From assembly GCF_045690325.1 (NCBI RefSeq), contig NZ_CP146981.1:1044853-1108852 (forward strand): DNA of 64,000 nt. Direction: 5' to 3'. Numbering within the stretch: position 1 is the stretch's first letter; the number at the start of each line of letters is the position of its first letter. The DNA is from Methanolobus sp. WCC5. GTDB lineage: Archaea; Halobacteriota; Methanosarcinia; Methanosarcinales; Methanosarcinaceae. The notes under the pieces are model-generated. The model saw only the letters and a list, made by a program, of their open reading frames with translations. It was not told the DNA's origin and searched no databases. Made by a program: the position numbers and the translations under genes. This document shows positions 5,447-41,958 of this stretch, piece after piece.

Positions 5447-5644
5447 TTAAATCACCCTCTTATGATCTTTCCCAGACGTTCTTAAAATTAACCTGTACGC
5501 GCAATTGCATACTAATATAAATGAGGTTAGAGATGCTATTTAATTGTTTTTACTTGCTATTGTATTGTTCAATATGATTTCTGTAATCGAAACCACCTTA
5601 TCCCTTAAAGGAGATTATTATTCAGGACCTTATTCAGGACCGCT

Positions 5645-5893
5645 ATGAGGTTTGGTAAAATGGCCGATCAAACAAATAAGGCGTCTGAAAATATTCCAGG
5701 CAGGTACTATGTTGATGACAATTGTATAATGTGTAAGGTTTGTTTGACCATTGCCCCTGAAATTTTTGCGATTTCAGACGATGGTACGCATGCCTACGTT
5801 CAAAAACAGCCGGAGAACGAAGATGAAACAGCTGCCTGCGAAGATGCACTGTTGAGCTGTCCGGTGGAGGCTATCGGAAGCAATGGGGAATAA
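5645..5893 (+). CDS. Small single-cluster ferredoxin
   Basis: The spacing of CIMCKVC ... C ... CP fits mono-cluster [3Fe/4Fe-4S] ferredoxins. An alternative start lies at ATG 5660, preceded by a GAGGT Shine-Dalgarno-like motif. Confidence 0.75.
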   Translation: MRFGKMADQTNKASENIPGRYYVDDNCIMCKVCLTIAPEIFAISDDGTHAYVQKQPENEDETAACEDALLSCPVEAIGSNGE

Positions 5894-22705: not shown

Positions 22706-24685
<1,980 letters not shown>

Positions 24686-24696
24686 GGTGAGGAAAA

Positions 24697-27213
24697 ATGG
24701 CAGATAATATTGATAATGACAATGTTCAGGGCAATGACCGGAACACCCCGGAAGATGAACTTCCTTTTGATATCCAGCCAACTGATACCGGTGAAAAGAT
24801 CGTTCCAATCCTGATCGAGGACGAGATGAAGAAATCCTTCATGGATTATGCCATGAGTGTAATTGTGAGCCGTGCCTTACCGGATGCAAAGGATGGCCTC
24901 AAGCCTGTCCACCGAAGGATACTCTATGCCATGAAGGAAGCAGGTATCTCCTATGACAAAGCCTACAAGAAGTCTGCCCGTGTAGTGGGAGACGTTCTTG
25001 GTAAGTACCATCCGCATGGTGACACTGCTGTGTACGATTCCCTTGTCAGGATGGTACAGGACTTCTCATTGAGATATCCATTCATAGACGGACAGGGTAA
25101 CTTCGGTTCAATTGACGGAGATGCTGCTGCTGCAATGCGTTACACAGAAGTGCGTATGGATAAGATCTGCGACGAGATGCTTGCTGACATCGAGAAGGAA
25201 ACTGTTCCCACACGTCCCAACTATGATGGTTCTCTGCAGGAACCGGTAGTACTTCCGGCAAAGCTCCCAAGTCTGCTAATTAATGGTTCCACAGGTATTG
25301 CTGTAGGTATGGCAACCAACATGGCACCCCACAACCTTACCGAGGTCATCAACGCAACGTTGATGATGATCGACAATCCGGAAGTGTCAATTCCTCAGTT
25401 AATGACTGCTATCAAAGGACCTGACTTCCCCACGGGCGGTGTAATACTTGGATCCCACGGGATAAAGGAAGCTTATGAAACAGGCCGTGGCAGGGTACAG
25501 GTGAGAGCAGTCGCTGAGATAGAAGAAATGAAAAAGGATAAGTTCAGGATAGTTGTTTCAGAACTTCCCTACCAGGTCAATAAGGCAAAGCTGGTAGAGG
25601 ATATTGCAGGCCTTGTAAGAGAAAAGAAAGTGACCGGAGTTTCGGATCTGCGTGACGAATCCGACCGTGACGGGATAAGGGTTGTGGTTGAACTGAGTCG
25701 CGGTACGAATGCAAATGTCGTACTGAACCAGCTCTACAAACACACACAGATGCAGACAACCTTTGGTATAATCAACCTCGCACTTGTGGACGATGTACCC
25801 CGGGAACTGAACCTCAAACAGATACTTCGCATCTACCTGGAGCACCGCATCGATGTTATACAGAAGCGTACCCGGTTCCTTTTGAAGAAGGCTGAGGACA
25901 GGGCTCACATACTGAAAGGCTTAAAGATCGCTCTTGACCATCTGGACGAAGTAATTTCACTCATACGCTCCTCAGCTAACGTGGATGAAGCAAGGGAAGG
26001 TCTCATTTCCAAATTCGGACTGGATGAAATACAGGCAAAGGCAATCCTTGACATGCGCCTGCAGAAACTCACCGGTCTGGAAAGACAGAAGATCGATGAT
26101 GAATATGAGGAGCTCCTCAGGCAGATTGCAGACTACATGGAGATAATCGCAAGTGATGAAAAGAAATACGGTATCATCAGGGAAGAACTTGCTGATCTGA
26201 AAGACCGTTTTGGTGATGAGCGCAGGACAGCCATCAGGTCATCTATTGATGAACTTGAGACCGAGGACCTTATCCCTGAGGAAGATATGGTGGTCACCAT
26301 CACCAACAGTGGCTACATCAAGAGGCTTCCTGTGGATACATACTCCCAGCAGCACAGAGGCGGAAAAGGGGTCATCGGAATGGATACCAAGGAGGAGGAT
26401 TTCGTTGTGGACATATTTGTTGCATCAACCCACGATTATATCATGTTCTTCACCAATCAGGGACGTGTTCACTGGCGCAAGGTATATGAGATACCCGAGG
26501 GGAGCAGGCAGTCCCGTGGCAAGGCCATTGTGAACCTGCTTGAACTTGGAGAAGGGGAGCTGGTAACTGCAATGATACCTGTAAGCGAGTTCAAGGAAGA
26601 TGAGTTCCTCTTCATGGCTACAAGTATGGGTACTGTTAAGAAGAGCCAGCTTTCCGATTTCAGCAATCCTCGCAAAAAAGGGATAATCGCTATAAGCCTG
26701 GCCGATGAGGATGAGCTTGTGAACGTGGCCCTTACTGATGGATCAAGGGATGTTGTCATGGTCTCGATGCATGGCAAAGCAATAAGGTTCCATGAGAGTG
26801 AGGTCCGTGTGATGGGACGCAGTGCCAGAGGTGTCCGTGGTATGAACCTGGAATCCGGTGATATGGTGGTAAGCCTTGATGTGGTAGATGAGACTGCATC
26901 ACTGCTCACTGTGACAGAGAATGGGTTCGGTAAGAGGACTCAGTTCGATGAGTACAGGGCCATGCACAGAGGAGGCAGGGGTGTCATTACCATAGTCACA
27001 AGCCTGCGTAACGGACCGGTGATCAATGTGAAGGCGGTCCACGACGAAGATGATATCATGCTCACAAGTTCTGAGGGTATCATCATCCGTATCCCTGTGA
27101 AAGATGTCCGCGTACAGGGCAGGAACACCCAGGGAGTCAGGATAATGAATGTCCGGTCCAGCGATAAGGTTGTTGGTGTTGCAAGGATAAGGACGGATGA
27201 AAAGCAGATGTAA
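24697..27213 (+). CDS. gyrA: DNA gyrase subunit A
   Basis: 838 aa. HRRILYAM, the active-site Tyr region and the GyrA-box C-terminal beta-pinwheel repeats. Confidence 0.9.
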
Positions 27214-27228
27214 ATGCTTTAAAGCATT
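27213..27228. terminator. Perfect 16-bp palindrome AATGCTTTAAAGCATT overlapping the gyrA stop codon
   Basis: Self-complementary sequence seen directly. Possible transcription termination or processing hairpin. Confidence 0.3.
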
Positions 27229-27336
27229 AACTATATGTAGTAGGCTGAGTAGCTAGGCATAAAAAATCGTATGACCAAATTTGTATAACCAGATCTAGTC
27301 TGACAAAACTTAGTATAACCAATTCAGGATGATATT

Positions 27337-28233
27337 ATGGAACTTGAAAAATTAAGACACGGTACTGAGCTTATTAAGCGCGGCTTTGCAAAGATGCAGA
27401 AAGGCGGTGTAATCATGGATGTGACCACACCGGAGCAGGCAAAGATAGCAGAGGAAGCAGGTGCTGTTGCAGTCATGGCATTACAGGCAGTACCGGCAGA
27501 TATCAGGAAAGAGGGCGGTGTTGCCAGAATGGCTGACCCGCAGATGGTAGCTGAGATCATTGACACTGTTACAATCCCTGTTATGGCTAAGGCACGTATC
27601 GGCCACTTCGTAGAAGGCGAGATCCTGCAGGCCCTTGGTGCTGACATGGTGGACGAGTCAGAAGTGCTCACACCTGCTGACCATAAGTACCACATTGATA
27701 AAACCCAGTTCACTGTTCCTTTTGTCTGTGGCGCAAGGAACCTTGGTGAAGCACTTCGCAGAATAAACGAAGGTGCAGCCATGATACGCACAAAGGGTGA
27801 GGCAGGAACCGGAGATGTCAGCGAGGCTGTAAAGCATATGAAACAGATCATGGGGGAGATCCGTGCCCTTAAGGGTATGACAAAGGAAGAGATGATAGCC
27901 GTTGCCCGCGAAATAGAAGCACCCATAGAGCTTGTGCTGGAAACTGCCCAGATGCAGCGTCTTCCTGTTGTCAACTTTGCAGCAGGCGGTGTTGCAACAC
28001 CTGCAGATGCAGCCCTTATGATGCGCCTTGGTGCTGACGGTGTTTTTGTCGGATCAGGAATCTTTAAGGCAGAGAACCCTGAGAAGATGGCAAAGGCAAT
28101 CGTTGAGGCTGTTAACAACTACGACAACCCCGAAGTACTTGCGCAGATCTCAAAGGGGATCGGTTCAGGTATGAAGGGTATCAGCGTAGATACAATTCCA
28201 CAGGAGCAAGCCTTACAGACACGTGGATGGTAA
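27337..28233 (+). CDS. pdxS: Pyridoxal 5'-phosphate synthase lyase subunit PdxS
   Basis: Highly conserved PdxS/SNZ sequence ([26 protein letters not shown]). Confidence 0.9.
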
Positions 28234-28295
28234 ACCCATCCACAATCTTTTTTGATTTTATTTAATTTACTTCAAACCAACTAAAACGTGATCTT

Positions 28296-28889
28296 ATGAA
28301 GCTAGGTGTTATTGCTATTCAGGGAGATGTTTCCGAACACGTCGAAGCTCTTGAAAAGGCACTTGAGCAGCGTGGCGAAAAAGCCGAGATAGTAACCATC
28401 AAACACAAAGGAATTGTCCCTGGATGTGATGCACTTGTGCTTCCCGGGGGAGAAAGTACAACTCTTGGAAAACTGCTTATACGTGAGGGCATCGCAGATG
28501 AGATAAGGGACATGAACGAAGCCTGCAAGCCAATCATGGGAACCTGTGCAGGCCTTATCCTGCTGGCAACTGAAGGTGACGAGCAGGTAAGAAAAACACA
28601 TCAGCATCTTCTGGGCCTTATGGATACCAGAGTTAACAGGAATGCATTCGGAAGGCAGCGTGATTCCTTTGAGTTCCAACTTGAACTTCCGTTTCTGGAT
28701 ACACCATACAATGCAGTATTTATCAGGGCACCCGGGATTGTAGAGGCTGGAAAGGATGTTACAATCCTTGCAAGCATCGATGACATGATCGTGGCTGCAG
28801 AGCAGGAGAATATTCTGGCACTGGCTTTTCATCCCGAACTTACCGATGACCTGAGGGTTCACCAGTACTTCCTGGATAAATTGTTCTGA
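28296..28889 (+). CDS. pdxT: Pyridoxal 5'-phosphate synthase glutaminase subunit PdxT
   Basis: Class I glutamine amidotransferase with GTCAG nucleophile motif. Follows pdxS. Confidence 0.9.
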   Translation: MKLGVIAIQGDVSEHVEALEKALEQRGEKAEIVTIKHKGIVPGCDALVLPGGESTTLGKLLIREGIADEIRDMNEACKPIMGTCAGLILLATEGDEQVRKTHQHLLGLMDTRVNRNAFGRQRDSFEFQLELPFLDTPYNAVFIRAPGIVEAGKDVTILASIDDMIVAAEQENILALAFHPELTDDLRVHQYFLDKLF

Positions 28890-29008
28890 TCTCTTTTTTT
28901 GCCCGTTTGATATCATTGTTCTCTTAGTTTACCCGGGACCTACTGATGAAAAAGTTTAAACTTCATTGGTGTGTAAACTATTTGCTTTCCTAATTTTGAT
29001 ATGCAAAG

Positions 29009-29425
29009 GTGAAAACAATGGTAAAATTAACCGATGAGATGAAAACAGAATTTGCAAAGATGAAGATATTTCCGCTGGCAACAGCCTCCAAAGACGGTGT
29101 ACCAAACGTAATCCCCATCGGGATGTGTATGCTTCAGGAAGATGCTGAGACAATATGGATCGTCGACAACTACTTCCTCAAGACTATGGAGAACCTCAGG
29201 GAAAATCCAAAATGTGCAATATATGTATGGGGACCGGACATAAACGGTTGTTTCCAGATAAAAGGTGACATCAAGATCATTGACCGTGGAGAGGAATACG
29301 AGGAAATGCGCAAGATAGTAAAGGCAAAGAGTGACCGCTTCCCTGCAAGATACCTTGTCAAGATGAAGATAACCGATGTCTTTGAGTGCAAGAGCGGACC
29401 TGAAGCGGGAAAGAAGTTACTCTGA
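29009..29425 (+). CDS. Pyridoxamine 5'-phosphate oxidase-like FMN/F420-binding split-barrel protein
   Basis: 138 aa. The PLATASKDGVPNVIPIG pattern is typical of the PNPOx-like family. Confidence 0.65.
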   Translation: MKTMVKLTDEMKTEFAKMKIFPLATASKDGVPNVIPIGMCMLQEDAETIWIVDNYFLKTMENLRENPKCAIYVWGPDINGCFQIKGDIKIIDRGEEYEEMRKIVKAKSDRFPARYLVKMKITDVFECKSGPEAGKKLL

Positions 29426-29720: not shown

Positions 29721-31244
29721 TCACTCTAATTTCTGTCCGCAGTTGCCACAGAACTTCTCGTCTGGTCCTGTGTCACGGCCGCACTTAGGACATTTCCTCT
29801 TTCCTGCACCTATGCTGGAACGCTGTATAATACTGTCCTGTATCGTGGTATTGCTTATATTGTACTGGGTCAGGGAATCATCGACAAATAGTTTGATATC
29901 CGTCCTTTTTTCGATCTCTTCAAGGATCTTGTGGTAGAAACCTGTTAGTGCTTCTTCCTTTTCGGCCCAGGCTTTGACGATCAGGCGGGATTTGCGTTTA
30001 CCCACAACCTCAATATATGCTGCATACTTAAGGCCTGCCACACCCTCTGCATAGAACCTTGCAACACCGGTGAACAGTTGCTGTGTTGAGGTTATCTCCG
30101 GTGTTATCATGTACATGTTCATATCTTTCAGTATGCGGGTTGCAATATCAAAGAGATTCTCTGCCGGTATCTCCAGATCCTTGCTATCCTCTTCTGCTAC
30201 CATCATAGAACTTATGTCCAGTCTCCAGGTTGCCTCATCAGTCTCTGTTACCCTGAGGACGGGACAGACAATATCCACCATCTTATTGCTCAGATCCAGC
30301 TGAACATGCTTTTTCTGGCTATAATCATAGTAGCGTATATTTCCTGCTATAATGCAATTACCGCATTCACCGGTGGGCCGGATAAAGAACGTTACGGTTT
30401 TACTTTCAGCCGGTTGCAGCATGGGTATGATCTTCTTACTTTCCTTGATAAGGAAGACCTCAGGAACAAAAATGTTTATGCTTATATCACCCATTGGCTC
30501 TTTTGACGTGTTCTCAACCTTGATCTTATAAAGTATACTGGCGCCTTTGTACTGGACAGCAGACCTGATAACAACAGGATCGTTTATAGGAGATGGTTGC
30601 AAAATCGAAGCTTCAAAAACAGATTTGGAAGCATTTTCATCTGCAGCCGGGGTTTTTTCAATAACAGGCACAGATGATGTCATGGATTTTTCATCCATTC
30701 CTTTTGGAGTCTTTTTATTTTTTTTCTTCTTTGAGATCTTGCGCAACACAAAAAAAGCAATTAGAACTATTACAACAGTACCGACCATTCCATAGAACTC
30801 ATCTTCTGCCGAAGTACCAGAATAGTCATAGGAGTCGGTATAGTATCCTGTCTGCTTCTCCCTGACCTCCGGCTCATCAGAGGTCACGGGATAGTCCGGA
30901 TATATGTATATGTCCGAGATATCAACATAATCGTAGTAATCATCATAGTATATATCATCGATCCTGAACTGAAGCGTAAGAGATCTGTCCTGATAATAAA
31001 AATAATCCCCTCTTGCATAATACTGATCCATGAGGACAGTATCATAATAGGAAACAGTGAACCTTACAATTTCGTTGTAGGTATCTATGTCCAATACATT
31101 CAGGTGATATCCGTCTCTGACCTCTGCAATCTCACCTTCCATGAGAGTAACCTCATAATCACTGGCAGATGCGGGGCATAAGCTCAGCATGATACTACAT
31201 GCCAGCAAGATCAGGACGAGGGGTTTAAGAGATCTCCGGGTCAA
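29721..31244 (-). CDS. Type-I membrane protein with Tyr/Asp-rich ectodomain and cytoplasmic C-terminal zinc ribbon
   Basis: N-terminal signal peptide and a single TM helix (VVIVLIAFFVL followed by a Lys-rich stretch). The C-terminus is CPKCG...CGNCG, preceded by the motif TIQDSIIQRS, which is shared with the protein at 34698-36440. Confidence 0.6.
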   Translation of the reverse strand: MTRRSLKPLVLILLACSIMLSLCPASASDYEVTLMEGEIAEVRDGYHLNVLDIDTYNEIVRFTVSYYDTVLMDQYYARGDYFYYQDRSLTLQFRIDDIYYDDYYDYVDISDIYIYPDYPVTSDEPEVREKQTGYYTDSYDYSGTSAEDEFYGMVGTVVIVLIAFFVLRKISKKKKNKKTPKGMDEKSMTSSVPVIEKTPAADENASKSVFEASILQPSPINDPVVIRSAVQYKGASILYKIKVENTSKEPMGDISINIFVPEVFLIKESKKIIPMLQPAESKTVTFFIRPTGECGNCIIAGNIRYYDYSQKKHVQLDLSNKMVDIVCPVLRVTETDEATWRLDISSMMVAEEDSKDLEIPAENLFDIATRILKDMNMYMITPEITSTQQLFTGVARFYAEGVAGLKYAAYIEVVGKRKSRLIVKAWAEKEEALTGFYHKILEEIEKRTDIKLFVDDSLTQYNISNTTIQDSIIQRSSIGAGKRKCPKCGRDTGPDEKFCGNCGQKLE

Positions 31245-31354: not shown

Positions 31355-32647
31355 TCAAACATCTGTGAGTCTTTTGCCACACTGGCTGCAAAAACTTGCC
31401 TCCGAAGGGATTGTTGACCCACATCCCGGACATTTTCTAACTGTGTGTGAAGTCCTGCCCACGGCAGCTCCCATCATAGCGGCATCAAGTTCCTGTCTGC
31501 GGTAAGAATCTGCACGTTCCCTGTCTTCGACTTCCATCATAAACCTGACACGATCTTCTTTTGCAAGAGCTTCTCCCTGTTTGATCTTTGCCAGGGCTTC
31601 GAGCTGCTCCGGTGTCATGCGACCATATTCGCGACCCTCGCTCACAGTCTTTGCAACATCGGCCCCTCCTGATCCAGTTATGTGTTTAAGGTATTCCATG
31701 TCACGTCCGTGTTCACGATCCCGCATGTCCTGTTCGACCTCAAGCTCAGCACGCATACCTTTTGCCTTTGCGATTTTTAGTTCCTCTTTGAGGCTTATAG
31801 CTTCCCTAGCTTCCCTTATATCAGCTTCATATTGCAGTCTTTCAGCCTCAAGTTCAGAGCTGACATCCTTCAATCTCTGATCACGATGGAAATCTTTTTC
31901 AGTTGCCACAGTTGCATGGCCTGCACGCAGACCTGCCACTTCTTCCCGGCCCCTGCGCTCAAGATCACCTTCCACTGACAGGGTCTCAAGTTCTGCAAGC
32001 TCTTCCTTTGTCTGCAGATCATTTGTGGCCTGCATTACCTTACCATAAGAACCAAGGTCCCACTGGATTGTGTATTTCAGGATTTCCAGCCCCCACATGG
32101 AAAAAGTGGAACGCAGCCGCATCTCAAGCTCATTCTCAAGGTTCAGGCGAAGGTCCCGGTTCCCGTAAATACTTTCAACATCTTCCTGTCTTATCCCGGG
32201 TTCAAGTACAAGTGTCAGTACCTCGCTTTCAATGCGCCCGTATATATCCTGCACTGAAAGGTCCCTGATCCCTTTCCTGTCTGGTGTCGCATAGGCATAC
32301 AACATCTGGAAGAAACGTTTCGGATCCTGTATCCTGAATCTCAGCAGACCGCCACAGGCTATTCTCTGGTCATCACTGGTCCACAGTTCTTCCTGTGTCC
32401 ATTGCATGTCCTTAGGAGATGTATCCATCAGCGCAACATCCACATCCTTTCCGATATTGCCAGGCTTTAGCAGGCCGCCAATTTGTAATTTACCACTGTC
32501 CACTATCTCTTCAACAACACCATTCTTTACCATGGCTGCCTTTTCATTGGGCGAGAGTATCACAGCTTTGCTGAAAAAGCCCCCGACCTCCTTTTTAGGA
32601 ACCACCCTGGCAATATCATCTGCTTCTCTTTTCCATTTGAATGCCAT
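31355..32647 (-). CDS. SPFH/band-7 (flotillin-like) protein with coiled-coil region and C-terminal zinc ribbon
   Basis: N-terminal ~200 aa match the SPFH pattern (…LLRFRIQDP…WGLEILKYTIQ). A long charged coiled coil follows, then a C-terminal CPGCG...CSQCG. Confidence 0.6.
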   Translation of the reverse strand: MAFKWKREADDIARVVPKKEVGGFFSKAVILSPNEKAAMVKNGVVEEIVDSGKLQIGGLLKPGNIGKDVDVALMDTSPKDMQWTQEELWTSDDQRIACGGLLRFRIQDPKRFFQMLYAYATPDRKGIRDLSVQDIYGRIESEVLTLVLEPGIRQEDVESIYGNRDLRLNLENELEMRLRSTFSMWGLEILKYTIQWDLGSYGKVMQATNDLQTKEELAELETLSVEGDLERRGREEVAGLRAGHATVATEKDFHRDQRLKDVSSELEAERLQYEADIREAREAISLKEELKIAKAKGMRAELEVEQDMRDREHGRDMEYLKHITGSGGADVAKTVSEGREYGRMTPEQLEALAKIKQGEALAKEDRVRFMMEVEDRERADSYRRQELDAAMMGAAVGRTSHTVRKCPGCGSTIPSEASFCSQCGKRLTDV

Positions 32648-32702
32648 TATCCTGACACCTTTGTTTTGTCAATCTTAAATTCTATTTATGTATTGGATAA
32701 GT

Positions 32703-32715
32703 ATTATATATATTG
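32703..32715 (+). promoter_or_regulatory. Candidate archaeal TATA box (TATTATATATATT) in the divergent intergenic region upstream of the RHH/ESCRT-III-like/Vps4-like operon
   Basis: AT-rich TATA-like motif about 55 bp upstream of the ATG at 32764. Also sits in the 116-bp divergent spacer shared with the SPFH gene. Confidence 0.3.
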
Positions 32716-32763
32716 TTTTCCATTGTATACATAAGAATACAAAAGGAATCAAGTTGGAATAAC

Positions 32764-32919
32764 ATGGTAAATTCTTATCCTGTAAGTGCAAGGATCTCAG
32801 AAGATAGTAAAGTATATCTGGACAAATTAGTAGAAATGGGAATAGCGATCAACCGATCAGAAGCCATGAAACTTTGTATCAGGTACGCAAAACAGAAAAA
32901 GATGGAGGAGGAATTGTAA
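32764..32919 (+). CDS. Small ribbon-helix-helix (CopG-like) DNA-binding protein
   Basis: 51 aa from ATG 32764, with a beta-strand (VSARISEDS) followed by two helices. Its stop codon overlaps the start of the next gene (TAATG). Confidence 0.5.
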   Translation: MVNSYPVSARISEDSKVYLDKLVEMGIAINRSEAMKLCIRYAKQKKMEEEL

Positions 32920-33488
32920 TGGGACTGACAAATCCATTTAAGAAGATATCACCCGAAGAGCTTAAGACAAAACTGGCAATTTCCGAGCAAAGGCTGACGG
33001 CACGGGAAAAAGAACTGATGAAAAAACAGATCAAATCCAGGGAAGAAGCAAAAGAAGCGCTTGCAAAAGGAAATGACAGGGAGTTCAGGGTTGCTTCAAG
33101 AAGATTTTCTCTTGTGGAGGGGCAGGTGAACACCATCAGCAGCATGGTAGAGATGGCACAATCCATGACAGATGTAATTGAAATGCAGACCGGGCTCAAA
33201 GAAGTCGTTGAGATAGGCCAGGACCTGGGAAAGTGGCAGAAACAACTTGGTTTTGACACTTCAAAACTAGAAGGTGCTGTAACTAACATAAGGACCTCCA
33301 TGGAAAAGGTTAACACAGCAACAAGTATGATGACAGCTTCCATGGATGCGGCAATGGGCGGTGGCACTGAACTTAGTGAGATGCAGGATTCGCTGCGATC
33401 AGAACTCCTTGCAGAACTCTCCAGTGAACAGCCTGCAAAGGATGAGCTTTCAAAGAAGATAGAATCAGAAATGGCAAACAGTGAATAA
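32919..33488 (+). CDS. ESCRT-III/Snf7-like (PspA/Vipp1 superfamily) helical protein
   Basis: 189 aa, all-helical. Basic N-terminal helix, then M/S/T/A-rich helices (SSMVEMAQSMTDVIEMQTG...AVTNIRTSMEKVNTATSMMTASMDAAMGG) matching the Snf7 pattern. Acidic C-terminus with a possible MIM-like helix (DSLRSELLAEL). Strong GGAGGAGG SD 5 nt upstream. Confidence 0.55.
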   Translation: MGLTNPFKKISPEELKTKLAISEQRLTAREKELMKKQIKSREEAKEALAKGNDREFRVASRRFSLVEGQVNTISSMVEMAQSMTDVIEMQTGLKEVVEIGQDLGKWQKQLGFDTSKLEGAVTNIRTSMEKVNTATSMMTASMDAAMGGGTELSEMQDSLRSELLAELSSEQPAKDELSKKIESEMANSE

Positions 33489-33540: not shown

Positions 33541-34701
33541 TTGAACCCAGCAATCACTTTTGCCGCCCAGGCCCGCGGATATGCAAAAGCTGCAAAGGAT
33601 CTGGAAGACAGAGGAGAGAATGAACGTGCCCGTGAACTATACCTGAAAGCTGCCAAGCTCTATAATGATGCTTCAATGATGACAGATGAAGGCATTGACC
33701 GGAATACCCAGCGTGACCTGGCAGAACATCTTTTTGCTAAGGCTCAGTCGCTTAAAAATCCGACTGCACTGTCTTCAGGAAAAAACGCACATGGTAAAAA
33801 AGAAGCATCAAACAATGATGAGTCTTCCATTTCAAAGGATGATGTATTTCTCAAAGAGATACCAAATATCGGCTTTTCAGATATTGGCGGCCTTGAACAG
33901 GTGAAGGAGGAAATACGCAAAGCCATTATCTATCCTTTTACACATAAAGAACTTTACCAGATGTACGGACAGAAAGCCGGAGAAGGGATCTTGCTCTATG
34001 GCCCTCCTGGCTGTGGTAAGACAATGATGGCAAAGGCAGCGGCAAAAGAATGCGAAGCGGATTTCATCAGCGTCAAGACCAGCAGCATTGTAAGTAAATG
34101 GGTCGGTGCTTCGGAGAAGAATGTCAAACAGGTCTTTGACATTGCCCGCGGGGGGGAGAGATCCATCATCTTTTTTGACGAAATAGATTCCATAGCTTCA
34201 AGACGCAGTGAAAGCGAGGACTATGCAAAAAGAGTGGTCAATGAACTTCTTGCCCAGATGGATGGTGTGGATACTGCGTCTGACAACCTTCTGGTGCTGG
34301 CAGCTACCAATGAACCATGGGCTATCGATCCGGCCCTGAGGCGTCCGGGGCGTTTCAGCAAACTTGTATTTGTCCCTGAACCAGACCAGGATGCAAGAAA
34401 AGCAATTCTGGGAATACATCTTCGAAAAAGGCCGGTAGACAGTGATGTGGACATAGATGCCCTTGCACGGCTAACAGAATCCTATTCCGGAGCAGACCTT
34501 GCAGCTATATGCAGGGAAGCAGCAGACATACCCCTGGGAGAAGCACTGAGGGGAGGGGAGCCAAGAAAAATACGGCTTCGTGATTTTGAAGCTGTTCTAA
34601 AGAAACGTAAACCTTCAATTGTTAGCTGGTACATAGAGGCCAGATCAGCAGTTCTGAAGACCGGAGAGGGAGAAGTGTTTGAGGAAATGCTGAAAAAGTG
34701 A
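33541..34701 (+). CDS. Vps4-like AAA+ ATPase with N-terminal MIT domain
   Basis: N-terminal three-helix MIT-like region (AQARGYAKAAKDLEDRGENERARELYLKAAKLY). Single AAA module with Walker A GPPGCGKT and Walker B IIFFDEID. The SRH region ATNEPWAIDPALRRPGRF belongs to the meiotic/Vps4 clade. TTG start with a GAGGTG SD. Confidence 0.8.
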   Translation: MNPAITFAAQARGYAKAAKDLEDRGENERARELYLKAAKLYNDASMMTDEGIDRNTQRDLAEHLFAKAQSLKNPTALSSGKNAHGKKEASNNDESSISKDDVFLKEIPNIGFSDIGGLEQVKEEIRKAIIYPFTHKELYQMYGQKAGEGILLYGPPGCGKTMMAKAAAKECEADFISVKTSSIVSKWVGASEKNVKQVFDIARGGERSIIFFDEIDSIASRRSESEDYAKRVVNELLAQMDGVDTASDNLLVLAATNEPWAIDPALRRPGRFSKLVFVPEPDQDARKAILGIHLRKRPVDSDVDIDALARLTESYSGADLAAICREAADIPLGEALRGGEPRKIRLRDFEAVLKKRKPSIVSWYIEARSAVLKTGEGEVFEEMLKK

Positions 34702-36440
34702 TACAAATGACATTCAAACTGTCACATTTAAATCCCCGGAATAATTTACGCATCGGCATTTATACCGGATTGGTTTTTGGTCTTGCAGAAGGATTCCCCG
34801 GTGCTATAAAAGGTGCAATTATCGGTTTGATACTTGCTTTTATTACTGCAATGATAGTTCAAAAAGTACTGAACAGAAGACTTGGGATGGAAAGACAGGA
34901 AGATAGCGTAATGTCCTATGCATTCTTCCTGGGAATGATCATCGCAATACCTGGAGCAGTGTTATTTGGTGCGTTCAAACCTGCACCAGTGATTTCACTG
35001 TTTGTGTGTACAATTGTAGCTCTTCGATCTGGCTCAAAAATAAAGAAAATCATGCAGGAAATCAATGCTGAAAAAGAAAATGAAATGCTAGAAAAACTTG
35101 AACTGGAAGAAGCGGCAAGTGATGCAGTTGAAATAACCGTAGAAGTGCAGCAACCACTTAGAACTGAAACTGAAAACCCGGTAAAAATAACCATCAAAAA
35201 TCCGTCTGACCTGCCCATAACTGACATTTCAATTATAGCTAAATGCACCCGTCTTATCCACTGTGACGAACCCGAAGTAAGCATAGATATAATACCACCT
35301 GGATCATCGAGTTATACTGCTATTTTCATCTACCCGAGAATTTCGGATGAAATTGATATCGGACAATTATTCATTGCATACAACATCAACGGAAACTATT
35401 ACGATAAAGACCCAATAGATATTGGAATTTATGAGGCAACAAACGGCCAGAATGTGAACAATGGTAGTATTGGGAATGTAGAAACCCATTTACAGATTAT
35501 CAGGGAAACTGAATTCTACCAGGGGTTTATTCGCCTGAAGATGGCAGTTAATAATAGATCACCTCTGGTTGTTAATGATGTAACACTTGAATTTGACTTT
35601 GATGAGCAGCTTTTCAGGATAGACAGGTTTGAACCTGCATATTCGGAAAAAAACAACCGCTTGATCCTCGGGAATATCCCCGGCAATAATTCAAAGTCAG
35701 TCATGGTTTATTTTGATCCCATGCTGTGCTCAAAGTCCTCAGAGATAAAATGTAGAATCTTTTATAAGGATGCACATGGTAAGCTCCTTAACACGGAAAT
35801 GAAGCCAAAAAGAATCGAAGTTACATGCCCCATCATGAAAACGGATTCCGATATTAATATAGGCATTCTCCGGGAACTTGTAGCATCACTTCCTTTCAGG
35901 GACAGTAAGGTTTACAGAATTAAGTCCGAGCTTGATATTGCAACCATTATGGCCATATGCCGCGAAATGGTACAACGCCATGATATCAGGCATGTGAGAA
36001 CATTGAAGACCATGGATGGAAAAAACTATGAGACCTGGTACTATGGAAAGACAAAAGTAAATGACCATGACCTGATACTCAAAATCACTGCTTCTGAAGA
36101 GACAGGATGTATAGAGATATTTGGTGCCACAAGGACCGCTGAATCACTTGTAGGCATGCTTGCTGAGTTTGGGCGTGAATTCTGCCGGGAGATGAAAACA
36201 AGCCCTGGTGGAAAAAATGATGTCACACCGATCGTCAACGTGACAATCAAAGACTCCATAATTCAGCGTAGCAATCTGTTGAATTCGTGTGACCTTCACG
36301 GAAATTGTACAGGAGATGTGGTCATTGAAGATAGTGTGGTGCAGAACACAGACATGGGAGCAAATTTTTGTACCTCGTGTGGTTCTAAAGTAAGTAAGGG
36401 GGCAAATTACTGCATAGAATGTGGCACCAGGATTATTTAA
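34698..36440 (+). CDS. Multi-TM membrane protein with Ig-like beta repeats and C-terminal zinc ribbon
   Basis: N-terminal TM helices, a coiled coil, and repeated beta-rich modules (…IDIGQLFIAYNINGNYYDKDPIDIG…). The C-terminus is TIKDSIIQRS…CTSCG…CIECG. The likely ATG start at 34707 lies 5 nt after the Vps4-like stop. Confidence 0.6.
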   Translation: MIQMTFKLSHLNPRNNLRIGIYTGLVFGLAEGFPGAIKGAIIGLILAFITAMIVQKVLNRRLGMERQEDSVMSYAFFLGMIIAIPGAVLFGAFKPAPVISLFVCTIVALRSGSKIKKIMQEINAEKENEMLEKLELEEAASDAVEITVEVQQPLRTETENPVKITIKNPSDLPITDISIIAKCTRLIHCDEPEVSIDIIPPGSSSYTAIFIYPRISDEIDIGQLFIAYNINGNYYDKDPIDIGIYEATNGQNVNNGSIGNVETHLQIIRETEFYQGFIRLKMAVNNRSPLVVNDVTLEFDFDEQLFRIDRFEPAYSEKNNRLILGNIPGNNSKSVMVYFDPMLCSKSSEIKCRIFYKDAHGKLLNTEMKPKRIEVTCPIMKTDSDINIGILRELVASLPFRDSKVYRIKSELDIATIMAICREMVQRHDIRHVRTLKTMDGKNYETWYYGKTKVNDHDLILKITASEETGCIEIFGATRTAESLVGMLAEFGREFCREMKTSPGGKNDVTPIVNVTIKDSIIQRSNLLNSCDLHGNCTGDVVIEDSVVQNTDMGANFCTSCGSKVSKGANYCIECGTRII

Positions 36441-36514
36441 GGCCATATTTTCACTAATATATTTATAATTTTAAATACATAAGATACTTGTTCATTCCTG
36501 TAAAGGTGGTTCAA

Positions 36515-37777
36515 ATGAAACTGGGACCTCTGGATGATATTATAAAATCACTTTCTTATGCCCTTCATAACGAGGCAGGTGCCAGGGTAGGATTGTTCTT
36601 TCAATTCTACGTCTTTTTTTGGATTGTGATGTCGTCATTCTTTGTTGTGACACGTATACTCTCAATTGACGAAAGACCAAATCCCATCTATGTTGCCAGT
36701 GCACCATTCTACATCCTGTTTCTTTATGTTCCGCTGTATGCTTTCTGGATATATGAAAAAAAGATCGGCATCGAAAAAAGAAGAGTCAAAGAGATGCAGT
36801 TAGTTTCTTCCGTAAATATAGAATACAGGTTTCCAGAGCCAGTGGATATCGGCATGGCTGCTATGCTGTATTTCAGGATCAATAACCCTACTGAAAAACC
36901 AATAGACAACATCTGGATACGGGCGGTTTTCCCGGCAACTGTTCGCTGTGACAGGCCTGTCCTGAGTCTTGGTTCCCTTGAACCAATGTCATCTTTATCT
37001 TCTTCTTTTTCTTTTATGCCACTCACATCAGGAAATTTGTCAATGGGCTATTGTGACCTTTACTTTGAGATCAACAGGCATAAACACCAGAGACCACCGT
37101 TATTTTTCGGGAACATTGATATTATCCATTCATATCTTGGATTGGATGTTCAAATGCCAAAGACACTCCGATTCGGGCACAGCTCTGTGATATCCATCAG
37201 AATATGGAACCACTCGAATCAGAATCTGGAAAAACTGCACACTAAATGTAATTTCCAAAAAGGAATACAATATGATACAGCTTTTTCCGATACAAGAACT
37301 GTACCCCAGGGTGCCTTATTTGAAGTGACACATCAGATAACCCCAACAACTGCAGGTACAATTGACCTGGGATATTTTGAAATCATATTTGACATTGAAG
37401 ATAACAAATGTAAAATAGGACCGGTGAATTTCGGTGAATATATGATCCGTGTTCCTGAAATCGATGTTAAGATCAATATCCCGGAAACATTATATAGCAC
37501 GGTTGGAAATACCATTGGAATATACGTTGAGAACAAATCTGAGGAAGTAATCCATAACATCTGTTTCAATAGCTGTTTTTCTTCATTTATAGAATGCCAT
37601 AGGCCAAACGTTTGTATCACTGACATCCTCCCATATTCATCCGGATATACTTCACTGATGATAAAACCCGTAAATGCAGGTCAGATCGACCTGGGCAACC
37701 TTAATATTTCCTTTGAAGTGAATGATATAACATTACAGAAAGAACCCATAGACATGGGCACACATGGGGTTGTGTAA
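36515..37777 (+). CDS. Membrane-anchored hypothetical protein with Ig-like beta repeats (paralogous to the domains of the upstream gene)
   Basis: N-terminal TM helices. Repeated motifs (GTIDLGYFEIIFDIEDNKCKIGPVNFG, GQIDLGNLNISFEVNDITLQKEPIDMG) resemble those in 34698-36440. AAGGTGG SD before the ATG at 36515. The track ORF starts with TTG at 36488. Confidence 0.55.
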   Translation: MKLGPLDDIIKSLSYALHNEAGARVGLFFQFYVFFWIVMSSFFVVTRILSIDERPNPIYVASAPFYILFLYVPLYAFWIYEKKIGIEKRRVKEMQLVSSVNIEYRFPEPVDIGMAAMLYFRINNPTEKPIDNIWIRAVFPATVRCDRPVLSLGSLEPMSSLSSSFSFMPLTSGNLSMGYCDLYFEINRHKHQRPPLFFGNIDIIHSYLGLDVQMPKTLRFGHSSVISIRIWNHSNQNLEKLHTKCNFQKGIQYDTAFSDTRTVPQGALFEVTHQITPTTAGTIDLGYFEIIFDIEDNKCKIGPVNFGEYMIRVPEIDVKINIPETLYSTVGNTIGIYVENKSEEVIHNICFNSCFSSFIECHRPNVCITDILPYSSGYTSLMIKPVNAGQIDLGNLNISFEVNDITLQKEPIDMGTHGVV

Positions 37778-37851: not shown

Positions 37852-39123
37852 ATGGAAACACTTAAAGATCCAAAAGAGCTGGAAGCGGTCAACAGGCAAA
37901 CCGTAATCGATAATCTTAATGAGGTTTATAATGCTGTTGAAAAGCTGATCCAAAGAGCCTATGCAAAGAAAGAAAGCGAACTTAATTCCCGGCTTCGCAA
38001 CATAAGGACTGATGTGTCACAGCTCCTATCAGACATCAGGAATAAAAGCATAGATGGTTTTTCCGGAAAGAAAGGAACACTTGATGATTTCTATAGAACG
38101 GGAGAAGAATTGTTGAAGGATTCATACAAAATGAGAGATACATTCTCTTCTTTAACAGGTTCAATGGAGAAGATAGATATCTTTTTACTGGAGGACCTAA
38201 TCGATAATTTTAAAAAGGAATATAATAACCGCATCATAGTAGACCAGAATATTCTCAAAGAGTTCAGGTTAAAACAAATGGAAGCAGCGAGTGCGCAACG
38301 CGTTATGGCAGGTGGCAACGATCTTGCGGTAAAAAAACAAACTCCGATACCTGACCCCAAACCCTGGAATGAAAGGGATAAAATCACAAGCTCTTTTGTA
38401 ATCTCAAAAGAAAGCCCCGGGTCTTCTACACCAGCTTTCTGGACAATGCCAAAGAACAGCAAAGAAGCAGATGTAAAGGAAGATATTGAGACAAATGTGC
38501 TTTCAAAGATCTACAATTACATGAACGTACTGGAGAACAAATATTCAACATACCAGCCGGAAGTATCATTTGCCGGTGAATATATAGGGAACCGAAAATG
38601 GAAAAAGAAAGTATCTGACAAATTCATTTCAGGCAGTGTTGTGGACAGCTTTTTGAAACCCATTCTGACCTTTGAAACCTGTTGGCGTCCATTTGATGAA
38701 CTGAGAACTGTCATGCAATTCGTTCAGAATGAAGCAAGCACAGTTCCGGAAGGAAAATACAAGAGCATATGCCTGCTGAATTTTAACTGGGATGAGGATA
38801 TCGTGGAATGGGCAGAAAACTATGTTCATCCGCGCCTGATATTATATCTTTATGACCTTAAATCAGACAGTATATGGTTCAATGAAAAAATTGAACTTGC
38901 CGGAAAGCTGAAGGTATGGCACAATACGGATACTTATGTAACTCTTCAAAGTGAGCTTGAGGCGCTGACAGAACAGGATGAAGGCTTTAATGCAGCTGAT
39001 GTGATGAAAGTTACAGGATTGAACATTGAAGGTGCCAACAATTATATTTCAGAAATGCTTAAAAGTAAAACTATTATAGATCTGGGATTTGGTACTTCCC
39101 GATATAAAGGAATGAAAAAGTAG
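37852..39123 (+). CDS. Hypothetical soluble protein (N-terminal coiled coil, C-terminal HTH-like segment)
   Basis: 423-aa ORF in the same orientation, 75 bp after the previous gene. No family recognised. Confidence 0.5.
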   Translation: METLKDPKELEAVNRQTVIDNLNEVYNAVEKLIQRAYAKKESELNSRLRNIRTDVSQLLSDIRNKSIDGFSGKKGTLDDFYRTGEELLKDSYKMRDTFSSLTGSMEKIDIFLLEDLIDNFKKEYNNRIIVDQNILKEFRLKQMEAASAQRVMAGGNDLAVKKQTPIPDPKPWNERDKITSSFVISKESPGSSTPAFWTMPKNSKEADVKEDIETNVLSKIYNYMNVLENKYSTYQPEVSFAGEYIGNRKWKKKVSDKFISGSVVDSFLKPILTFETCWRPFDELRTVMQFVQNEASTVPEGKYKSICLLNFNWDEDIVEWAENYVHPRLILYLYDLKSDSIWFNEKIELAGKLKVWHNTDTYVTLQSELEALTEQDEGFNAADVMKVTGLNIEGANNYISEMLKSKTIIDLGFGTSRYKGMKK

Positions 39124-39148: not shown

Positions 39149-39559
39149 TCACTCTTCTGCTGCTTCCTCAGCCGGCTCTTCATCGCCGCCAAGGATCTTT
39201 TCTATAGTCTTGTCACCGTATTCTGCAACAACCGTGTTTATCTGCACGATGTCAGGAGCAATCTCCTTTCCACGCATCATTTTTCTGCGGCGTACTCCAT
39301 TTGAGACCGGGGAATAACCGGTCCCTCCGGCAACGAGCAATTTCTGCCTTCTTGGTCCTGGGATGTCTGACCTCATGACCATTCCACTCTTGTCGCTTCC
39401 TCCCGTTATTTTCAGTGTATAACCAGGCAAGCCTACTGTTGCACCGTCAACGGTCTGTCCTATTGATTTTCCTATAAATTTGTTGGCTTCAGCGCCTGTG
39501 ACATTGAACTGATATGACTTTGTCTTAGGATCTGCAACCACTACCTTGAAATCTGCCAT
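39149..39559 (-). CDS. rps6e: 30S ribosomal protein S6e
   Basis: [17 protein letters not shown]… [13 protein letters not shown] is classic S6e. Confidence 0.9.
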
Positions 39560-39624
39560 ATTTTTTCCTCCTTAATAGTTTATTGTTCCTGTTTGTTATG
39601 ATCTGTCTAATGAATATGCAAACC

Positions 39625-41406: not shown

Positions 41407-41508
41407 ACCCCTTCAAAGATCATTCAGATAGCCGGAAATGATTTTCGGTAAAGGATATTTCAGGATGCCTGCTTAATATAAGTTTGCAAACATCCCAACT
41501 GCTTCTAC

Positions 41509-41958
41509 TTACTCGTAGAGGCAGACCTCATCTATCTTAGAATAATTAACTATCTCCTGATCCCCGAAGTGGATAGATATCTCACGCTGTGCGGATTCCT
41601 GTGAATCAGATGCATGCACCACATTCCTGCCTGTCTCGATTGCAAGATCTCCCCTTATAGTACCGGGAAGTGCATCCACGGGGTTTGTGGCACCGTTCAC
41701 TGCGCGCATGATAGCAATGGCATTCTTTCCTTCCACTACCATGGAAACAGAGGGTCCGGAAGTCACATACTCTATAAGTGAAGCAAAGAAAGGCCTTGCT
41801 TCATGTTCCTTATAGTGTTCCTTCGCATTCTCTTCACTCATGACACATAATTTCATGGCCGCGATCTTAAGGCCACGCCTCTCGATCCTTGAGATGATCT
41901 CTCCCATCAGTCCACGCTGTACAGCGTCAGGTTTGATCATTATGTATGTCTGTTCCAT
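41509..41958 (-). CDS. ndk: Nucleoside diphosphate kinase
   Basis: [14 protein letters not shown] … the NxxHASD active-site His region. Confidence 0.9.

Follow-up and report, generated by a model that had tools for sequence, protein, structure and literature searches.

[quoted passage not shown] The 64 kb window comes from Methanolobus and contains the ESCRT system that Makarova et al. 2024 (PMC10936438) call 'Meth_adaptin'; a resemblance of this system to the ancestral ESCRT machinery of archaea has been proposed. We consider it fairly probable that the ribbon-helix-helix (RHH) gene is the first cistron of the Meth_adaptin core operon and that it encodes a putative repressor acting at the block 32702–32731, with low production of the RHH protein and high production of ESCRT-III. 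This module of regulator and promoter adds something new, if modest, to a system already known. A small putative DNA-binding protein that is universally co-inherited, together with a nearly invariant 30 nt promoter element, provides a concrete handle for experiments in the form of a probe for binding assays, a promoter for reporters and a regulator through which the inducing condition and the phenotype may be found.

As in the published Meth_adaptin system (PMC10936438), the locus encodes a Vps4-like ATPase, ESCRT-III, an SPFH protein with a coiled coil and a zinc ribbon, and adaptin-appendage-like and CC-wHTH proteins. The combination of Vps4, ESCRT-III and SPFH genes that defines such loci is present in the window, and the layout and gene lengths match those of the published M. 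zhilinae locus. The text of that paper makes no mention of RHH, ribbon-helix, CopG or transcription, and its Table S2 has no gene between ESCRT-III and SPFH in either of two Meth_adaptin loci (M. zhilinae and M. methylutens MM1). In M. zhilinae, the 51-amino-acid RHH gene and a 111 bp spacer together occupy the 266 bp gap in the table exactly. The published parts list of the system is thus corrected by the RHH gene, and the conserved promoter block is likewise absent from the published description.

The SPFH gene (31355–32647, minus strand) is divergent from the RHH gene. Its product is a Band-7 protein with a coiled-coil region and a C-terminal zinc ribbon (Pfam Band_7, 30.5 bits with a gathering cutoff of 23.6; Zn_Ribbon_1, 26.4 bits with a cutoff of 25) and is the counterpart of arCOG15283 (PMC10936438). 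The gene is adjacent and divergent in 36 of 36 Methanosarcinales loci. A Shine–Dalgarno sequence, AGGTG on the minus strand (32656–32660), can be read 8 nt before its ATG, and the corresponding 'cacct' columns are conserved in the spacer alignment.

On the other side, the second cistron of the rightward arm (32919–33488, plus strand, 189 amino acids) encodes a protein of the ESCRT-III (Snf7/CdvB) superfamily, assigned to arCOG00454 (PMC10936438). It reaches 13.8 bits against Pfam Snf7, below the cutoff of 27.3; Snf7 is the family matched by the largest number of ESCRT-III orthologues, with sub-threshold matches in 16 of 20 (best E = 3.1e-5). A comparison with PDB sequences gave weak IST1 matches. 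The AF2 model (pLDDT 77) contains four long helices spanning residues 12–49, 53–110, 115–146 and 152–187, and shows the ESCRT-III arrangement of a long α1–α2 hairpin followed by shorter helices. The best Foldseek matches to this model are S. islandicus CdvB, Asgard ESCRT-IIIB and the Snf7 core, with a target-normalised TM score of 0.83 and an rmsd of 2.3 over 101 columns for 8wb6; the E-values are weak (0.07–0.9), as is usual for all-helical folds. The expected Vps4/CdvC-type partner is encoded next (33541–34701, plus strand, TTG start with GAGGTG ahead). This AAA+ ATPase matches Pfam AAA (148.8 bits) and AAA_lid_3, and aligns end to end, over residues 5–367, with NCBIfam CdvC at 243 bits (equivalog cutoff 650). 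The ATPase gene is adjacent in those Methanosarcinaceae loci that reach far enough downstream, is set apart by extra DNA in L030–L032 and is absent within 6 kb in the Methanoperedens loci.

The RHH gene itself (32764–32919, plus strand) is a real open reading frame that starts at ATG 32764–32766 and runs for 51 codons to the TAA at 32917–32919. It is present in all 36 Methanosarcinales/Methanoperedens loci, and the differences at codon positions 1, 2 and 3 (0.168, 0.093 and 0.517, respectively) indicate purifying selection. Even where the Vps4 gene is no longer adjacent, it keeps both its junction with ESCRT-III and its divergence from SPFH. An exhaustive profile search shows how narrow the family is: among 1.84 billion representatives it makes up only three clusters at 50% identity. 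The gene is absent from the four Thermoplasmata-type loci that were checked, in which ESCRT-III and Vps4 are kept. Both observations fit a system-specific part. Most of the non-orthologous matches in the profile search were large repeat proteins (Sel1-like and others), which were rejected as spurious after P0124, P0129 and P0132 had been read.

The sequence evidence supports a genuine and conserved protein of RHH type. The protein of the window scores 19.9 bits against Pfam RHH_1 (E = 7e-4), 0.6 bits under the gathering cutoff of 20.5, and RHH_1 is matched by 22 of 31 orthologues (best E = 4.4e-5). Two distant relatives from the exhaustive search exceed the gathering threshold of this family. 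The best NCBIfam match is the DNA-binding region of AbmR from M. tuberculosis (E = 2.9e-6). AbmR has been shown by experiment to be a DNA-binding factor, and the region in question was predicted by its authors to be nucleic-acid-binding and similar to CopG-type RHH domains (PMC6282994). Weak matches to the RHH orthologues are also found for the precomputed family PF27540 (Mb1296_C). In the AF2 model of the monomer, there are two helices (7–25 and 31–50), broken at the invariant G26...N30-x-S32. The N-terminal stretch SYPVSARIS shows an alternating pattern but is of low confidence in this model and has no strand; a monomer cannot form the two-stranded ribbon. A Foldseek search with the same model returned no usable match, which is uninformative since the query is a monomer model of an obligate dimer. 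At the other end, protein-level conservation is also seen in the C-terminal tail AKQKKMEEE(L/I).

The two genes are joined by a TAATG overlap of 1 nt (32917–32921), in which one A serves both as the last base of the RHH stop codon and as the first base of the ATG (32919–32921) that opens the 189-codon ESCRT-III frame ending at 33488. This overlap was correctly recognized in the first-pass annotation, as was the Shine–Dalgarno sequence of the downstream gene, GGAGGAGG; the latter lies at 32904–32911 within the Met-Glu-Glu-Glu codons of the RHH gene and is separated from the ATG by 7 nt (32912–32918) and not by five as had been proposed. A start at the upstream in-frame TTG 32874 was considered for the ESCRT-III gene and rejected: it is absent from most relatives, and the related proteins align from the MGL... 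start. The distance between the RHH stop and the ESCRT-III start is −1 or 0 nt in 37 of 37 sequences (TAATG in 20, TAAGTG in eight, TAAATG in six, and TGATG, TAGTG and TGAATG in one each), while the junction between ESCRT-III and Vps4 is anywhere between about 50 nt and more than 5 kb long or is lost together with the Vps4 gene. The RHH/ESCRT-III arrangement therefore goes beyond chance.

The Shine–Dalgarno sequence is selected at the nucleotide level. Glu codons 48 and 49 of the RHH gene, in which it resides, are GAG in 33 of 36 cases each; Glu codons 13, 24, 33 and 50 prefer GAA, and the background fraction of GAG is 0.39. Its duplex energy against the anti-SD is −10.1 kcal/mol in the window, with a mean of −10.6 kcal/mol; for comparison, −9 kcal/mol or lower is reached by only 3.5% of random 20-mers. 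The earlier description of the site as strong is thus borne out. A co-directional pair with a −1 nt junction and a Shine–Dalgarno sequence inside the upstream gene has the features of an overlapping coupled pair and resembles the termination–reinitiation pairs of Huber et al. (2019, 2023). Overlaps of this kind, with an internal Shine–Dalgarno sequence, rank among the commonest junctions between genes in both archaea and bacteria (PMC6728339, PMC10666635). The gene overlap by itself is ordinary, and translational coupling alone would be of no consequence. The difference from the Huber pairs is that the junction is unstructured here and would permit independent initiation; the mechanism is otherwise not unusual. 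The in silico fold of the junction mRNA has less structure than that of shuffled controls (z = +1.17) and contains no masking structure, so that the ESCRT-III AUG should be usable de novo and strict dependence on translation of the upstream gene is not predicted.

The start of the RHH gene is of a different quality. It has essentially no Shine–Dalgarno sequence in the window (−3.8 kcal/mol versus a background of −3.6), and in some lineages the gene lacks any ATG, GTG or TTG start. The stoichiometric co-expression of the two proteins that had been suggested earlier is not supported: the Shine–Dalgarno sequence of ESCRT-III is strong, that of the RHH start is weak or absent and the junction mRNA is unstructured. 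From these features together we predict much more ESCRT-III than RHH protein, an excess that would be expected for a regulator encoded beside a structural gene. With a start that shares the final base of the RHH stop codon and a Shine–Dalgarno sequence that is selected, strong and unmasked, ESCRT-III could be made both by ribosomes that re-initiate after terminating on the RHH gene and by ribosomes that initiate de novo. The weak RHH start would then yield little regulator and much filament subunit from each mRNA, and not a 1:1 ratio.

The divergent spacer between the SPFH start at 32647 (minus strand) and the RHH gene is 116 bp long (32648–32763), in agreement with the first-pass annotation. 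The TATA-like element reported in it, TATTATATATATT, is indeed present, at 32702–32714 and hence one base to the left of the position first given, and it proves to be the core of a nearly invariant block of 30 nt, TATTATATATATTGTTTTCCATTGTATACA (32702–32731). The TATA-like part is followed by GTTTTCC (32715–32721), which on the minus strand is possibly a BRE for the leftward promoter, and by the palindrome TGTATACA (32724–32731). The mean pairwise difference within the block is 0.067, compared with 0.43 and 0.49 for the 14 nt flanks and 0.517 for third codon positions of the RHH gene, which makes the block about sevenfold more conserved than its flanks and synonymous sites. In the 32 loci compared, 23 of the 30 positions are invariant, and the position of the block relative to both genes is kept. 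An invariant G 4 nt past the block and 21 nt after the TATA element marks the predicted transcription start site of the RHH operon (32735, plus strand). This spacing matches the promoter-to-start distance of 19–22 nt in Methanolobus psychrophilus (PMC5378194).

That one regulator could serve both arms had been raised in the first-pass annotation and is possible on the present sequence evidence. In L026, where an inserted gene parts the two arms, the whole block has been duplicated and one copy stands beside each arm, which fits a single element, and possibly a single regulator, for both. The block is single-copy in the window, and extra copies of the block or palindrome do not exceed the counts in shuffled controls over these 64 kb. 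When metagenomes were scanned with an 18-mer, 11 of the 120 matches listed were near RHH, ESCRT-III and/or SPFH genes, and all 11 had the TATA part directly upstream; the other 109 had unrelated flanks, and none of the matches listed was a full block outside an SPFH/RHH spacer. Relatives carry TTGTATACAA or CCATTGTATACAATGG as palindrome variants. Four Methanomethylovorans loci have a divergent palindrome (CCAAAGTATTAAATGG) but keep the putative DNA-reading strand of the RHH protein unaltered, so that the exact operator is uncertain. Part of the conservation could also stem from the needs of BRE, TATA and initiator instead of a repressor site. Longer imperfect inverted repeats (I1–I6) were dropped as candidates, as they are not conserved in the spacer alignment.

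In the mechanism that we infer, the core operon, in the order RHH, ESCRT-III, usually Vps4, and then the adaptin-like and CC-wHTH genes, would be transcribed together with the divergent SPFH arm from one compact bidirectional promoter with the block 32702–32731 as its core. RHH dimers would bind the palindromic part of the block (or its variants in relatives) and repress their own operon in the manner of archaeal repressors that bind between the TATA element and the start site. Binding may modulate the SPFH promoter as well.

The tight junction can also be read at the protein level. We regard it as rather unlikely that the RHH protein serves mainly to associate with ESCRT-III physically, either as a recruiter or adaptor like CdvA or the upstream wH proteins, with the junction serving co-translational complex formation, or in a partner switch of PspA–PspF type, in which free ESCRT-III would control DNA binding by the RHH protein. 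The junction conserved in all 37 sequences, also where Vps4 has moved away, is compatible with such a role, as is the conserved C-terminal tail; short overlaps are enriched among the subunits of heteromeric complexes (PMC10666635), and elsewhere in archaea the gene upstream of ESCRT-III encodes a wH protein that is a proposed interactor (PMC10936438). However, the weak or absent Shine–Dalgarno sequence and possible non-AUG starts of the RHH gene, set against the strong site of ESCRT-III, speak against equimolar production, 51 amino acids leave little besides a DNA-binding fold, and the ultra-conserved block next door is most simply a site for a DNA-binding protein. The two roles might be combined, with the RHH protein acting as operon repressor and as direct partner of unpolymerised ESCRT-III, such that free cytosolic subunits set ESCRT and SPFH transcription and their consumption at membranes lifts repression. 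We hold this to be improbable; if true, archaea would have an RHH-based equivalent of the PspA–PspF feedback loop of bacteria, and the ESCRT system a homeostat.

Equally slim is the prospect that the protein is a global regulator of cell cycle or division of the CdrS or aCcr1 type, with its main targets elsewhere and its place beside ESCRT-III serving co-expression only. CdrS, which is co-transcribed with ftsZ2, occupies 18 ChIP-seq sites genome-wide (PMC8406309), and aCcr1 represses 17 genes (PMC9976878). Similarity to the CdrS family (NCBIfam NF058555) is weak at 13.6 bits (E = 0.049), far from the cutoff of 100 for an equivalog. The narrowness of the RHH family, its absence from the Thermoplasmata-type loci and the scans of the window and metagenomes described above argue against a global role, with the proviso that members of a regulon might share only a short half-site. 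It is very improbable that the protein is instead a relative of a histone-fold fragment (loop L1 plus helix α2) with another nucleic-acid- or protein-binding role. An hhalign comparison of the family profile with the archaeal histone HMfB aligned 34 columns at 50% identity (pairwise E = 7e-4) and comparisons with Arc and CopG gave nothing. Among PDB sequences, a profile search turned up weak matches to NF-YB (E = 0.016–0.18) and HMfB (E = 0.8) only and no RHH protein of solved structure, and Pfam CBFD_NFYB_HMF is matched by six of 31 members. The hhalign probability is only 26%, though, and two gaps have to be placed in a stretch that would form a single unbroken helix; equivalents of α1 and α3 are lacking and the AF2 helix break at the invariant G26–N30 is as in RHH proteins. 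RHH_1 also matches far more members with better E-values, and the AbmR and Mb1296_C matches and the distant relatives are of RHH type.

The locus-specific autoregulator that we prefer can be compared with three known arrangements. In the haloarchaeal CdrS–FtsZ2 operon (Haloferax volcanii HVO_0582–0581; Halobacterium salinarum) a very small RHH protein is likewise encoded by the upstream cistron and a filament-forming division or membrane-remodelling protein by its partner, in an order conserved across related archaea (PMC8406309). Here, the partner is ESCRT-III and not the tubulin homologue FtsZ2, the RHH protein is not a member of the CdrS family, and the evidence points to one local site. 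The binding element of the RHH protein aCcr1, a repressor of cdvA in Sulfolobales, has the same geometry as the TGTATACA element. That repressor has its gene elsewhere in the genome and controls cdvA and further genes in trans in an ESCRT-dividing lineage, whereas the present gene lies in cis with its stop codon joined to ESCRT-III in FtsZ-type euryarchaea, and the homology seen between the two is confined to the fold. In bacteria, PspA, a member of the ESCRT-III superfamily, is encoded beside PspF, a dedicated transcription factor of its own operon, and PspA loci recurrently contain Band-7/SPFH partners (PMC11237479, PMC8281802). PspF is a σ54 AAA+ activator that is bound and inhibited by PspA, in contrast to the 51-amino-acid RHH factor, and the resemblance is one of functional analogy only.

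The outer genes complete the two arms; tRNA and Rfam searches of the window gave no match. At the end of the leftward arm, 29721–31244 (minus strand) encodes a 507-amino-acid protein with a C-terminal zinc ribbon (Pfam DZR/Zn_Ribbon_1) and faint adaptin/coatomer-appendage-like similarity (Coatamer_beta_C and GAE_BBS1), which is kept as the neighbour of SPFH in related loci. In the rightward arm a 580-amino-acid membrane protein with Ig/adaptin-like similarity and a zinc ribbon (34698–36440, plus strand) follows Vps4, its GTG start overlapping the Vps4 stop by 4 nt (GTGA), with an alternative ATG at 34707. The next gene (36488–37777, plus strand), conserved in Methanolobus loci, encodes a 429-amino-acid membrane protein with faint Ig-like matches (Pfam Transglut_C and TRAPPC13_C). 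The adaptin-appendage matches in the locus are all faint (Coatamer_beta_C, 17.4 bits; GAE_BBS1; Alpha_adaptinC2; TRAPPC13_C); arCOG15284 lists Methanolobus species (PMC10936438). The last gene of this arm (37852–39123, plus strand) encodes a 423-amino-acid helical/coiled-coil protein with no significant Pfam match, the C-terminus of which is possibly winged-helix-like as judged by eye from the translation; it resembles the entry 'coiled-coil fused to wHTH' in Table S2 of PMC10936438.

Makarova et al. (2024; PMC10936438) defined the Meth_adaptin ESCRT system, and the window locus is an instance of it. In the gene map, drawn from family searches, the rightward arm begins with the RHH gene (32764–32919) and the ESCRT-III-like gene (32919–33488), both on the plus strand, continues with a Vps4/CdvC-like AAA+ ATPase and two membrane proteins with Ig-like similarity, and ends with a coiled-coil protein with a possible winged-helix-like terminus. 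The TGA stop of the Vps4-like gene overlaps the GTG start of the next gene by 4 nt (GTGA, 34698–34701), making a second apparent coupling junction of the operon; an alternative in-frame ATG is present at 34707. The leftward arm encodes an SPFH/Band-7 protein with a zinc ribbon (minus strand, start at 32647) and a 507-amino-acid protein combining a zinc ribbon with faint adaptin/coatomer-appendage similarity. The flanks consist of housekeeping genes and show no sign of a mobile element: gyrB, gyrA, pdxS, pdxT and a PNPOx-like gene on the left (22724–29425), and the ribosomal S6e gene followed by aIF5B and nucleoside diphosphate kinase (NDK) on the right (39149–41958).

The ESCRT-III-like protein has 77 relatives, the named ones all from Methanolobus, Methanococcoides, Methanomethylovorans, Methanohalophilus, Methanosalsum or Methanoperedens; a Methanolobus MAG (L001) is 99% identical. 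The Pfam family matching most orthologues is Snf7 (16 of 20, best E = 3.1e-5, always under the curated threshold), a weak sequence signal for ESCRT-III identity that is consistent across orthologues. The AlphaFold model (pLDDT 77) contains four long helices, and among its Foldseek matches S. islandicus CdvB, Asgard ESCRT-IIIB and the Snf7 core rank highest (E = 0.07–0.9, target-normalised TM up to 0.83). Given these matches, the adjoining Vps4-like gene and the published assignment to arCOG00454 (PMC10936438), membership of the ESCRT-III superfamily is accepted. The upstream TTG at 32874, given as the start in the ORF list, is missing in the relatives, whose proteins all align from MGL. Near the C-terminus, residues ∼156–167 (QDSLRSELLAEL, 33384–33419) form an amphipathic helix in which Leu159, Glu162, Leu163 and Glu166 are invariant in 20 orthologues; this helix is a candidate for an MIT-interacting motif that would serve the adjacent Vps4-like ATPase.

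The RHH ORF, as read from the sequence, extends over 51 codons from the ATG at 32764 to the TAA at 32917–32919. The first-pass annotation had made its reading depend on conservation of this ORF in related loci, and tblastn places it directly upstream of ESCRT-III in 36 of 36 Methanosarcinales/Methanoperedens loci, with 69–98% amino-acid identity. Mean pairwise differences at codon positions 1, 2 and 3 are 0.168, 0.093 and 0.517, respectively, the hallmark of a protein under purifying selection. This small ORF is a real gene.

The window protein scores 19.9 bits against Pfam RHH_1 (cutoff 20.5), and this family matches 22 of 31 orthologues (best E = 4.4e-5). The top NCBIfam match (E = 2.9e-6) is a portion of M. 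tuberculosis AbmR, a demonstrated DNA-binding factor; its authors predicted this portion to bind nucleic acid and to be CopG RHH-like (PMC6282994). When 1.84 billion representatives were searched exhaustively with the family profile, only three orthologue clusters came up, along with a handful of small, distantly related proteins; two of the latter exceed the RHH_1 threshold. Among precomputed Pfam assignments, the orthologues carry PF27540 (Mb1296_C) as a weak match; we take this family to be the same AbmR domain, since Mb1296 is the M. bovis orthologue of Rv1265.

The AF2 monomer model consists of two helices parted at the invariant Gly26...Asn30 and contains no strand. A fold search with this model gave no matches, and a PDB sequence search with the family gave just weak NF-YB/histone matches. 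When the family was compared by hhalign with HMfB, Arc and CopG sequences, nothing aligned with Arc and CopG, while residues 9–44 (within 32764–32916) aligned with loop L1 and helix α2 of HMfB over 34 columns (50% identity, E = 7e-4, probability 26%). A histone-like non-RHH protein would agree with this pattern and is an alternative of low probability; we read the resemblance, unexpected for an RHH-type protein, as a common local motif in which an extended segment precedes an N-capped amphipathic helix. The lone cysteine of the second helix, Cys38 (32875–32877), is invariant in 31 of 31 orthologues. As the second helices of an RHH dimer pack against each other, a structural or redox role for this residue is conceivable.

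The final A of the RHH stop codon is the first base of the ESCRT-III ATG (32919–32921), in agreement with the TAATG overlap first described. The stop/start junction is −1 or 0 nt in 37 of 37 sequences (TAATG 20, TAAGTG 8, TAAATG 6, and TGATG, TAGTG and TGAATG one each), in contrast to the ESCRT-III to Vps4 distance, which ranges from ∼50 nt up to kilobases. The Shine–Dalgarno sequence GGAGGAGG is also present (32904–32911), at 7 nt from the ATG rather than the 5 nt initially assigned. It lies in the codons for Met-Glu-Glu in the RHH tail. GAG is used in 33 of 36 loci at each of Glu codons 48 and 49, whereas GAA is favoured three- to eightfold at Glu codons 13, 24, 33 and 50 (background GAG fraction 0.39) and the synonymous sites around codons 48 and 49 are freely variable; the nucleotide sequence is thus selected, as for a ribosome-binding site.

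Duplex energies were calculated against the 16S rRNA 3′ end, which we take to be GAUCACCUCCU. The window value for the ESCRT-III start is −10.1 kcal/mol (mean −10.6), and only 3.5% of random 20-mers of the window reach −9 kcal/mol or lower; for the RHH start it is −3.8 kcal/mol (mean −5.95, background mean −3.6). The junction mRNA folds more weakly than shuffled controls (z = +1.17). A strong Shine–Dalgarno sequence at one start, a background-like energy at the other and an unstructured junction together predict more ESCRT-III than RHH protein, which leaves the proposed stoichiometric co-expression unsupported. The arrangement allows termination–reinitiation, experimentally established at such overlaps in archaea (PMC6728339, PMC10666635), as well as independent initiation at the ESCRT-III start. 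Overlap and Shine–Dalgarno sequence are genuine, yet ordinary for archaeal operons.

Three loci (L030–L032) lack any ATG, GTG or TTG for RHH from the in-frame stop upstream down to the conserved strand, and the codon 6 nt past a strong Shine–Dalgarno sequence is ATC (L030 site at ∼270–300). The same position holds ATA in L034–L036 and ATG in L033; in the RHH frame of L034–L036 the sole ATG/GTG/TTG before the conserved strand lies within or directly against the Shine–Dalgarno sequence. The sequences of L030–L032 and L034–L036, all from Methanosarcinales/Methanoperedens MAGs, suggest near-cognate start codons and a deliberately weak translation of the regulator. In the Methanoperedens loci L033 and L035 the RHH/ESCRT-III pair is still divergent from SPFH, and no Vps4 gene is found within 6 kb downstream of ESCRT-III. 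Since ESCRT-III of L035 is followed by a ∼650 nt gap and then by an opposite-strand gene, RHH and ESCRT-III probably make up a unit of two genes in this locus.

The spacer shared with the divergent SPFH gene is indeed 116 bp long, and the TATA-like element TATTATATATATT is present at 32702–32714, one base to the left of its annotated position. Alignment of the spacers gives a single block, TATTATATATA-W-TGTTTTC-Y-ATTGTATACA (32702–32731), with 23 of 30 positions invariant in 32 loci and a mean pairwise difference of 0.067 versus 0.43 and 0.49 in the 14 nt flanks. This block is retained from Methanolobus through Methanoperedens, with a diverged version in four Methanomethylovorans loci. It comprises the TATA-like element and a palindrome, TGTATACA, which is longer in many loci (TTGTATACAA or the 16 bp CCATTGTATACAATGG). 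An invariant G at 32735, 4 nt past the block, lies 21 nt beyond the TATA element. This spacing matches the promoter-to-TSS distance of 19–22 nt measured in Methanolobus psychrophilus (PMC5378194), and the G would be the start site. The opposite strand reads GGAAAACA and then TATATATAAT, which resembles a BRE and TATA for SPFH; the Shine–Dalgarno sequence of that gene (AGGTG) is likewise conserved. A shared symmetric TATA element with direction-specific flanking elements is a reasonable reading. In L026 (region 4759–5845) a 207-amino-acid methyltransferase-like gene (4952–5575, minus strand) is inserted between SPFH and RHH, and the entire block including the palindrome occurs twice, once beside SPFH and once beside RHH. 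The block is unique in the 64 kb window. An 18-mer scan of metagenome contigs gave at least 120 matches; among those listed, 11 are near RHH, ESCRT-III and/or SPFH genes, all with the TATA part directly upstream, and the other 109 have unrelated flanks.

We propose that the RHH protein is the ESCRT system's own transcription factor; DNA binding, the site and the sign of regulation are all parts of this proposal. The divergent SPFH arm might also be tuned by it, as the first-pass annotation had supposed. The main weakness of this mechanism lies in Methanomethylovorans, where the palindrome is altered and the putative DNA-reading strand of RHH is not. A rival is that the RHH protein is a physical partner of ESCRT-III: gene overlaps are enriched among heteromeric complexes (PMC10666635), and a winged-helix protein is encoded upstream of ESCRT-III in other archaeal ESCRT loci (PMC10936438). 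Another is a global regulator similar to CdrS or aCcr1. The closest architectural precedent for the locus is CdrS–FtsZ2, where a small RHH gene and the gene for a filament-forming division protein share a transcript (PMC8406309); the window protein falls outside the CdrS family. As the proposed transcription factor of its own system, the RHH gene belongs among the small RHH regulators linked to archaeal genes for division or membrane remodelling.

The RHH gene, ESCRT-III, the divergent SPFH gene and the near-invariant promoter block are the most stable core of the ESCRT system, more stable than the adjacency of ESCRT-III and Vps4. In the Thermoplasmata-type loci (L037–L040) ESCRT-III and Vps4 are kept and no RHH gene lies upstream of ESCRT-III; an SPFH-like match, a distant one, occurs in L039 alone, ∼1.5 kb upstream and on the same strand. 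The RHH/promoter module appears to be confined to the Methanosarcinales version of the system. Within the literature collection searched, no paper joins ESCRT with Methanolobus or any of the related genera in its main text. The Meth_adaptin system is already published, and the RHH gene is absent from its description: the text never mentions RHH, ribbon-helix, CopG or transcription, and Table S2 lists no gene between ESCRT-III and SPFH in the two Meth_adaptin loci checked, M. zhilinae (1376799–1377064, 266 bp) and M. methylutens MM1 (823559–823893, 335 bp) (PMC10936438). It is this stable core, together with a regulator omitted from the published description, that is worth keeping. Both gaps hold the 51-amino-acid RHH gene; in M. 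zhilinae this gene, with a 1 nt ESCRT-III overlap, and a 111 nt spacer exactly fill the 266 bp. The gene carried the GenBank tag Mzhil_1284, as a 67-amino-acid call, and the RHH ORF is annotated as a CopG/Arc/MetJ-type regulator (CopG family) in some database/NCBI records.
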